Assembly: GCA_031288395.1 (NCBI GenBank)
Contig: JAITRM010000029.1
Span: 31,782-95,781, forward strand
DNA length: 64,000 nt
From: Holosporaceae bacterium
Lineage (GTDB): Bacteria; Pseudomonadota; Alphaproteobacteria; UBA3830
Direction: 5' to 3'
In this document: positions 59,267-59,891 of the stretch, piece by piece
Numbering within the stretch: position 1 is the first letter of the stretch
Layout: each line of letters begins with the position of its first letter
Made by a program: the position numbers and the translations under genes
Notes under the pieces: generated by a model
Database searches by the model: none
The model's input: only the letters and a program-made list of their open reading frames with translations
What the model was told of the DNA's origin: nothing

Positions 59267-59282
59267 TGTTCCACGTGGAACA
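59267..59282. promoter_or_regulatory. parS: parS-type ParB binding site 1
   Basis: TGTTCCACGTGGAACA is a perfect 16-bp palindrome (18 bp with its flanking A/T). It starts 1 nt after the trxA stop and has one mismatch to the canonical TGTTNCACGTGAAACA. Confidence 0.75.
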
Positions 59283-59303
59283 TAGGATTGGTTTTCCTAG
59301 AAT

Positions 59304-59891
59304 ATGATCTCGGCGAAAGAGCTAAATGTTTCACGTGAAACATATGAAAAACTGAAGATATACGAAAGCCTGCTGTTGAAATGGCAGAAAGCAATTAATC
59401 TTGTTTCACGTGGAACATTGGAGCACTATTGGGAAAGGCATGTGCGAGACAGCCTGCAAATTATTCCGCACATTAGGGGAAAAAATATTCTGGACATTGG
59501 TTCCGGCGGTGGTTTTCCGGGAATGGTTTTGGCGATGGTCGGGGATTGGGATGTGGTTTGCGTAGATTCGGACAAAAGAAAGATGCTGTTTCTCGCGGAA
59601 GTAGCTCGAATGACTGATACTGCGGTGCGTTTGGAGGCGTGCAGGATCGAACAGCTCCGGCTAAATGGATTTGATACCCTATGCGCCCGAGGATTTGCCA
59701 GCCTGACGAAGCTGCTCGATGTAATGGTGGGACTTCGGTCCGAATATGGAGTTTTTCTGAAGGGAGCCAAACTGGAGGCCGAGCTGGAAAAGGCCGCCAC
59801 CCAATTCGATTTCAAATATGAAAAGCGTCCCAGCGAGACAAACGGGAACGGCTACATTTTGACCGTGCATTCCATTGGAAAAAGAAAATAA
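59304..59891 (+). CDS. rsmG: 16S rRNA (guanine527-N7)-methyltransferase
   Basis: 195 aa with VSRETYEKLKIYESLLLKWQKAINLVS...WERHVRDSL and the SAM motif ILDIGSGGGFPG. Confidence 0.92.
   Translation: MISAKELNVSRETYEKLKIYESLLLKWQKAINLVSRGTLEHYWERHVRDSLQIIPHIRGKNILDIGSGGGFPGMVLAMVGDWDVVCVDSDKRKMLFLAEVARMTDTAVRLEACRIEQLRLNGFDTLCARGFASLTKLLDVMVGLRSEYGVFLKGAKLEAELEKAATQFDFKYEKRPSETNGNGYILTVHSIGKRK
59327..59342. promoter_or_regulatory. parS: parS-type ParB binding site 2 (exact consensus)
   Basis: TGTTTCACGTGAAACA is a perfect palindrome and an exact match to the canonical parS consensus. It lies inside rsmG, where codons 9-13 read V-S-R-E-T. Confidence 0.85.
59402..59417. promoter_or_regulatory. 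parS: parS-type ParB binding site 3
   Basis: TGTTTCACGTGGAACA combines one half-site from each of sites 1 and 2. It lies inside rsmG, where codons 34-38 read V-S-R-G-T. Confidence 0.75.

Follow-up and report, generated by a model that had tools for sequence, protein, structure and literature searches.

Three 16-bp palindromes of the parS type lie within 151 bp at the trxA–rsmG junction of a 0.8-Mb Holosporaceae-type genome, and they very probably serve as functional ParB loading sites, that is, as a chromosomal parS centromere, with parA and parB located on another contig. The window, as the term is used here, is the whole stretch of 64,000 nucleotides that was analysed; it is part of contig C16 of an assembly of 37 contigs that is estimated to be 95% complete and whose gaps may hold further parS copies. 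The features around the junction are, in window coordinates:

57657-58943, murA (ORF call)
58961-59266, forward strand, trxA, thioredoxin (Pfam Thioredoxin, E = 5e-29)
59267-59282, no strand assigned, parS-type site 1, TGTTCCACGTGGAACA, a perfect palindrome in the 37-bp trxA–rsmG spacer
59304-59891, forward strand, rsmG (gidB), 16S rRNA m7G527 methyltransferase (Pfam GidB, 118 bits)
59327-59342, no strand assigned, parS-type site 2, TGTTTCACGTGAAACA, read as N8-V9-S10-R11-E12-T13 of RsmG
59402-59417, no strand assigned, parS-type site 3, TGTTTCACGTGGAACA, read as L33-V34-S35-R36-G37-T38 of RsmG
59894-62467, forward strand, addB, followed on the same strand by addA, start from 62370 (to 64000) (Pfam PDDEXK_1, UvrD-helicase)

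The original prediction had placed three 16-mers at exactly these positions and with these sequences, had called the second an exact match to the parS consensus, and had judged the cluster to be beyond chance; the motif search bears out all of this. The three are perfect TGTTNCACGTGNAACA palindromes, and they are the only matches to TGTTNCACGTGNAACA in the window with up to two mismatches. By chance 0.15 matches would be expected, and none of 100 dinucleotide-preserving shuffles of the window reached three or more. Compared with the parS consensus TGTTNCACGTGAAACA, site 2 matches at 16 of 16 positions, site 1 carries C/G at the free position pair and is perfectly palindromic, and site 3 combines the two half-sites as a T/G hybrid. 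Extending the search for further copies to the whole assembly (786,973 bases, 37 contigs, about 95% complete) returned only the same three sites at 0–1 mismatch, the next-best matches being three with two mismatches each, all on contig C5. The motif is thus clustered and of low copy number, with three copies inside 151 bp and zero elsewhere in 787 kb.

Site 1 begins directly after the TAA stop codon of trxA (59264-59266). Site 2 extends from the third base of rsmG codon 8 to the end of codon 13 (N-V-S-R-E-T), and site 3 from the third base of codon 33 to the end of codon 38 (L-V-S-R-G-T), so that the proposed double use of the two sites as V-S-R-E-T and V-S-R-G-T codons corresponds to V9-T13 and V34-T38, within the first 38 codons of an intact RsmG. 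The protein has 195 aa, contains the SAM motif DIGSGGGFPG, and is homologous by sequence alignment to the GidB proteins of E. coli (1JSX) and B. subtilis (1XDZ). Downstream, addB and addA fill the position 3' of rsmG that parA and parB hold in most Alphaproteobacteria, and neither parA nor parB is present within the 64-kb window; gene calls and Pfam matches agree here with what had been read from the sequence. Counted from the first start codon, the reading frames of addB and addA share 98 nt (62370-62467), and translation of addA probably begins downstream of 62370.

The assembly encodes a single ParB homologue, on contig C33, with ParB_N, HTH_ParB and ParB_C (dimerisation) domains. Directly upstream of it is a gene for a 255-aa ParA ATPase (AAA_31 E = 8e-58, CbiA), and this one canonical parA-parB pair is flanked by an IscS-like gene and by murJ-dnaB-alr, which is a chromosomal context. 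The ParB protein retains the CTP-binding GERRLRA, ENIQREDLNP, and Q...GKSRSHVAN...FGHAR, and by ungapped count it has equivalents of Caulobacter R173, N178, G201 and R204. Of these residues, R173, N178 and G201 make contact with parS in Caulobacter ParB, and two of the three, R173 and G201, do not vary among ParB orthologues (PMC7383237). Lysines of the Noc type are missing from positions 179 and 184, and the top PDB matches are ParB/Spo0J chains, including the parS-bound 4UMK and 6T1F, which score above Noc. Both the match to the consensus and the presence of a single ParB homologue whose parS-binding helix-turn-helix is intact uphold the assignment of the sites to the parS type. MipZ is encoded at full length on contig C8 (C8:1971-2738; 330 bits over the whole profile), so that a ParB-dependent division-site system of the Caulobacter type is probably also encoded. 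A search for the SMC hinge (PF06470) gave no match in the assembly, but the same search missed the control, Caulobacter, and the negative result carries little weight for this reason.

We infer ParB binding, clamp spreading and a role in segregation at the three sites from these sequence features. ParB dimers, made in trans from C33, would recognise each 16-bp palindrome through the helix-turn-helix, bind CTP via the GERRxRA motif, close as clamps, and slide onto the flanking DNA. The sliding clamps would build one partition complex across trxA-rsmG-addB, and the presence of three sites in 151 bp would increase the rate of ParB loading. ParA from C33 would move the partition complex apart after replication, and MipZ from C8 would probably position the division site by means of it, as it does in Caulobacter.

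It is unlikely that ParB binds these sites mainly as an operator, tuning transcription of trxA-rsmG-addBA rather than acting in segregation. Site 1 is in the spacer just upstream of rsmG, a parS of M. bovis BCG overlaps a gidB promoter with regulation having been proposed (PMC2346475), and ParB proteins are known, from work on Vibrio, to silence genes in their neighbourhood. However, a promoter scan found no sigma-70-like promoter at or adjoining any of the three sites, and these are the sole parS sites in a 0.8-Mb genome that retains ParA, ParB and MipZ, which speaks for a retained function in segregation. Regulation and segregation do not exclude one another.

The separation of the sites from parAB is best seen against the alphaproteobacterial sample, in which parA-parB directly follow rsmG in 64 of the 74 other loci that have enough downstream sequence. 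The same canonical rsmG-parA-parB order occurs in sister families f3 and f4 and in class-level outgroups. In the genome under study (G000) rsmG is followed by addB-addA, in departure from the canonical mnmG-rsmG-parA-parB layout. The claim that parS is physically uncoupled from parAB thus stands, with parA-parB on C33 beside murJ and dnaB and rsmG on C16; the accompanying statement that parA-parB follow rsmG in most bacteria holds for the Alphaproteobacteria sampled, which is as far as these loci carry it. Because parA-parB directly follow rsmG in so large a part of the sample, we take the uncoupling as the derived state. Neither parA nor parB follows rsmG in the Holosporaceae-type loci L033-L037, nor in L040 and L067, and among the sampled loci the rsmG–parAB linkage is broken only in the Holosporaceae-type family and a few neighbours. 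The distance between rsmG and parB is 69.7 kb in G002, where both are on one contig, and about 14 kb in G021, and in the other family members checked the two genes are on different contigs.

Gene order in this group is poorly conserved. G000 and G002 (L119-L127; G002:C16:1-175525) belong to the same genus, with about 75–82% DNA identity. The 175-kb contig of G002 aligns to G000 in synteny blocks of 0.5–13 kb, in mixed orientation and distributed over about 17 G000 contigs, reflecting either very frequent rearrangement or a chimeric assembly in one of the two. Scaffolding of G000 on this G002 contig, which carries both rsmG and parB, was dropped since synteny is broken, and for the same reason the G002 rsmG–parB distance is not transferable to G000. 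The assembly contigs C1 and C36 are identical in size and have no similarity, which is a coincidence. The simplest history would be that the in-gene parS is ancestral, that rearrangement took parAB away, and that the cis site stayed with rsmG.

Proximity to the origin, which the original prediction had held probable for this cluster, is a usual property of chromosomal parS. In this assembly dnaA is on contig C11 (9 kb), apart from the rsmG contig C16. The cumulative GC skew of C16 has several turns (at about 37, 76, 101 and 121 kb), with a maximum at 37 kb and a local minimum at about 76 kb, and its local sign tracks gene orientation where checked, the minus-strand rnj and birA (54.9–57.3 kb) lying in a negative-skew stretch. 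A DnaA-box scan found no cluster near the three sites. Clusters of DnaA boxes are weak in general, the best being four one-mismatch boxes at 17.4–17.9 kb of contig C21, in a spacer flanked by tRNA genes. On the 175-kb contig of G002, a skew minimum at rsmG was not seen, and dnaA is not on that contig. None of these observations ties an origin to a position close to the three sites or distant from them.

We compared the locus with 41 related genomes, mostly metagenome-assembled and of 0.5–1.3 Mb, which contain from zero to four perfect parS sites each. RsmG was detected in 34 of them. In the reduced genomes of the same order that have rsmG, perfect sites are inside the gene or at most about 0.7 kb away, with the exceptions of G009 and G025, and at least one perfect site is present in 26 of 32 compared loci, including 25 of the 30 rsmG loci that were aligned (alignment A1). 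The commonest family layout in this alignment is trxA, a junction parS, rsmG and addB; trxA is upstream of rsmG in most members, and the trxA-parS-rsmG-addBA block is retained across most of the family. An in-gene parS is found at codons 8–13 in most genera and at codons 33–38 in most family members. The junction parS occurs in several genera of the family, with a perfect site at the place equivalent to site 1 in G001 and G002, which are of the same genus as G000, and in some other genera it overlaps the putative start of rsmG, where another frame gives M-F-H-V-E. Site 3 is a 15/16 match (GGTT...) in most family members; in G000 the Leu codon before it is CTT, not TTG, giving the full 16/16 match.

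Some of the related genomes have perfect sites in other genes. No rsmG was detected in G006, whose sole perfect parS (L113 1564-1579; G006:C3:11063-11078) ends a 359-aa xerD-like recombinase open reading frame, where it reads NVSRETQK-stop; the remaining 400 bp of the contig are without rsmG-like sequence. The tail of this reading frame looks like a surviving 5' fragment of rsmG, kept for its parS. In G028, also with no detectable rsmG, the only perfect parS (L114 1564-1579; G028:C22:160063-160078) forms the 3' end of tkt (transketolase), which there reads M-F-H-V-K-H-S-stop; tkt is convergent with secF, and parB is on another contig. The rsmG of G025 has a 15/16 parS and a parA-like gene downstream, with parB on another contig, and a second, perfect parS of this genome (L117 1506-1521; G025:C4:47305-47320), read as V-S-R-E-T, is inside an lpxI-like gene flanked by lpxA-like and lpxB-like genes.

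An explanation that we consider very unlikely is that the sites are relics of an ancestral rsmG–parAB centromere, with ParB now loading elsewhere or independently of parS. The physical distance between parAB and the sites and the highly rearranged state of the genomes would fit such a history, but no other consensus site is present in the assembly, and the parAB contig C33 has zero parS-like words within three mismatches. Moreover, the family carries the junction site and site 3, both mostly missing from the wider alphaproteobacterial sample, the synonymous Leu codon of G000 completes site 3 to 16/16, and the freeze of synonymous positions described below was measured inside the family that has the uncoupled layout.

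Whether selection acts on the DNA or on the peptide can be judged from codon usage. The site-3 codons GTT, TCA, CGT, GGA and ACA are each used by 79–100% of the family members that have the respective amino acid, compared with a commonest-codon share of median 42% and maximum 81% at 50 other columns of at least four-fold degeneracy (Mann-Whitney p = 1.5e-4, within the family). Two of these codons are rare, TCA accounting for about 9% of Ser codons genome-wide and CGT for about 9% of Arg codons. The expectation that synonymous positions of the VSRET and VSRGT codons would be frozen among relatives is in agreement with this result. The residues change only in a restricted way, and the switches S/P and E/G fall exactly on the two free positions of the parS consensus.

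A wider sample of 80 alphaproteobacterial rsmG loci, from groups including Rhodobacteraceae, Sneathiella, Parvibaculum, Micavibrio, SAR116, Emcibacter, Caedibacter and Rhodospirillaceae, was collected with peptide patterns that leave out VSRET. At rsmG +23, the position of site 2, parS is present with at most one mismatch in 62 of the 80 loci, and in 49 it is perfect; the GC3 of rsmG in the loci with parS at +23 ranges from 0.17 to 0.81. Wherever the peptide is V[S/P]R[E/G]T the parS codons are used (55/55 loci), even at a GC3 of 0.81, and the 18 loci without parS at +23 have mostly unrelated residues, such as VPPEA, DLFNK and EFSEK. The junction site and site 3 are mostly absent from this sample, site 3 being found otherwise only in L099. 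The simplest history would place parS in rsmG codons 8–13 in the ancestor of the Alphaproteobacteria.

Additional sites were observed in the same sample. Loci of the Sneathiella/Micavibrio type have an extra in-frame parS-like site (15–16/16) about 300 nt into rsmG, at +302 in L038, L042, L050 and L080 and at +305 in L048, L058 and L070. In most of the alphaproteobacterial loci a further perfect parS is found about 1.9–2.1 kb upstream of rsmG, close to where the preceding gene, presumably mnmG, begins.

On the evidence of these alignments, we conclude that the parS sites in rsmG are under selection as DNA, because synonymous positions are frozen, S/P and E/G switches occur only at free positions, and relatives lacking parS have unrelated residues. 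It is highly improbable that their conservation is a by-product of a need of RsmG for VSRET and VSRGT, the palindromes being a functionless coincidence of codons. In the RsmG alignment of relatives V9, R11, E12, T13, N32, L33 and S35 are invariant or nearly so, and NL[VT]S is kept even in the GidB proteins of E. coli and B. subtilis, as a need of the protein would predict. Such a need does not account for synonymous positions frozen on rare codons, for the tolerance of radical S/P and E/G swaps exactly at the free parS positions, or for the unrelated residues in RsmG proteins without parS; in addition, site 1 is non-coding, other genera read their parS in the MFHVE frame, and parS remains where rsmG is gone (G006 and G028).

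Selection on the DNA would permit a stronger reading, for and against which we find the balance to be even. V-S-R-E-T in RsmG would be the translated shadow of the centromere and not a need of the enzyme: parS would have been there since early Alphaproteobacteria, dictating five residues, and rsmG in the Holosporaceae-type family would have become a carrier of the centromere that is independent of parAB. The argument is that all 55 loci with the peptide use parS codons and that parS-less loci mostly differ, so that the site would dictate the peptide and RsmG would have no need for it. Taken jointly with this reading, and held in the same even balance, the cluster would gain in-gene and junction copies, and parS codons could outlive rsmG, as in G006. 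In the literature covered by our search, the scope of which excluded the parS census of Livny et al. (2007), neither a class-wide parS at rsmG +23 that fixes VSRET nor an rsmG parS that stays put when parAB move is stated.

We give almost no weight to the proposal that these are CACGTG-centred palindromes bound by another factor, or RNA or DNA hairpins such as a trxA terminator, since although all three can form short hairpins (-5 to -11 kcal/mol) and site 1 is directly after the trxA stop, a terminator scan found no loop-plus-T-run terminator at the three sites, the match covers the full 16-bp ParB consensus beyond the CACGTG core, and sites identical to those here adjoin parAB across Alphaproteobacteria.

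The interpretation of the palindromes as probable ParB loading sites can be set beside the known chromosomal systems. The chromosomal parSc of Thermus thermophilus HB27 is inside gidB and is bound specifically by the chromosomal ParB in EMSA (Li et al. 2015, PMC4409726). The two loci are alike in having a consensus 16-bp parS in gidB/rsmG coding sequence, the only such location in the chromosome. They differ in that Thermus has one site, with gidB directly upstream of parA-parB, whereas here there are three in 151 bp and parAB is on another contig.

The parS sites of Caulobacter form a group that surrounds the parAB operon over a few kb, at about 8 kb from the origin. The likeness to the present locus includes the same DNA-contact residues in ParB, several parS packed tightly, and the ParA and MipZ partners (PMC5815017; PMC7383237). 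Tran et al. (2018, PMC5815017) describe a 10-kb ParB-binding region near the Caulobacter origin and do not mention gidB. The difference is that here all sites are at rsmG and parAB is elsewhere.

As in the present case, gidB of Mycobacterium has a parS right at its beginning (Casart et al. 2008, PMC2346475). The genome has only two parS, both in the gidB-parA-parB locus, and in Mycobacterium smegmatis parS is at the 5' end of gidB (PMC2346475). In contrast to the locus described here, the mycobacterial gidB-parA-parB operon is intact, with one site over the promoter and the other in parA (PMC2346475).

The B. subtilis system has about ten dispersed sites, unlike the single tight cluster away from parAB found here. 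Its parS can sit in coding sequence, one being inside spo0J itself. According to Lin and Grossman (1998), as cited in PMC4409726 and PMC2346475, the Spo0J parS sites are distributed through the 20% of the chromosome nearest the origin, and on that account the two systems are alike in that parS need not adjoin the parAB genes. The present locus is not a new kind of system, because parS in gidB and parS away from parAB have both been published.

The host is an uncultured symbiont known as a metagenome-assembled genome, and the rsmG cluster is its only recognisable centromere, in a 0.8-Mb genome that has retained the ParABS-MipZ machinery. The locus provides a clean natural case in which the same DNA is read as codons and, in all probability, also bound by a protein, and the binding site appears to win over the protein: synonymous positions are frozen, and residues drift only where the site permits. 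After rsmG and parAB were split, as it seems, by shuffling of the genome, the cis site would have kept company with the gene that encodes it and not with the proteins that use it. The family and its relatives may also serve as a comparative data set on the distance that is possible between a centromere and parAB and on the origin of parS copies inside genes, with examples at rsmG +23, +98 and about +302, in the tails of tkt and xerD, and in an lpxI-like gene.
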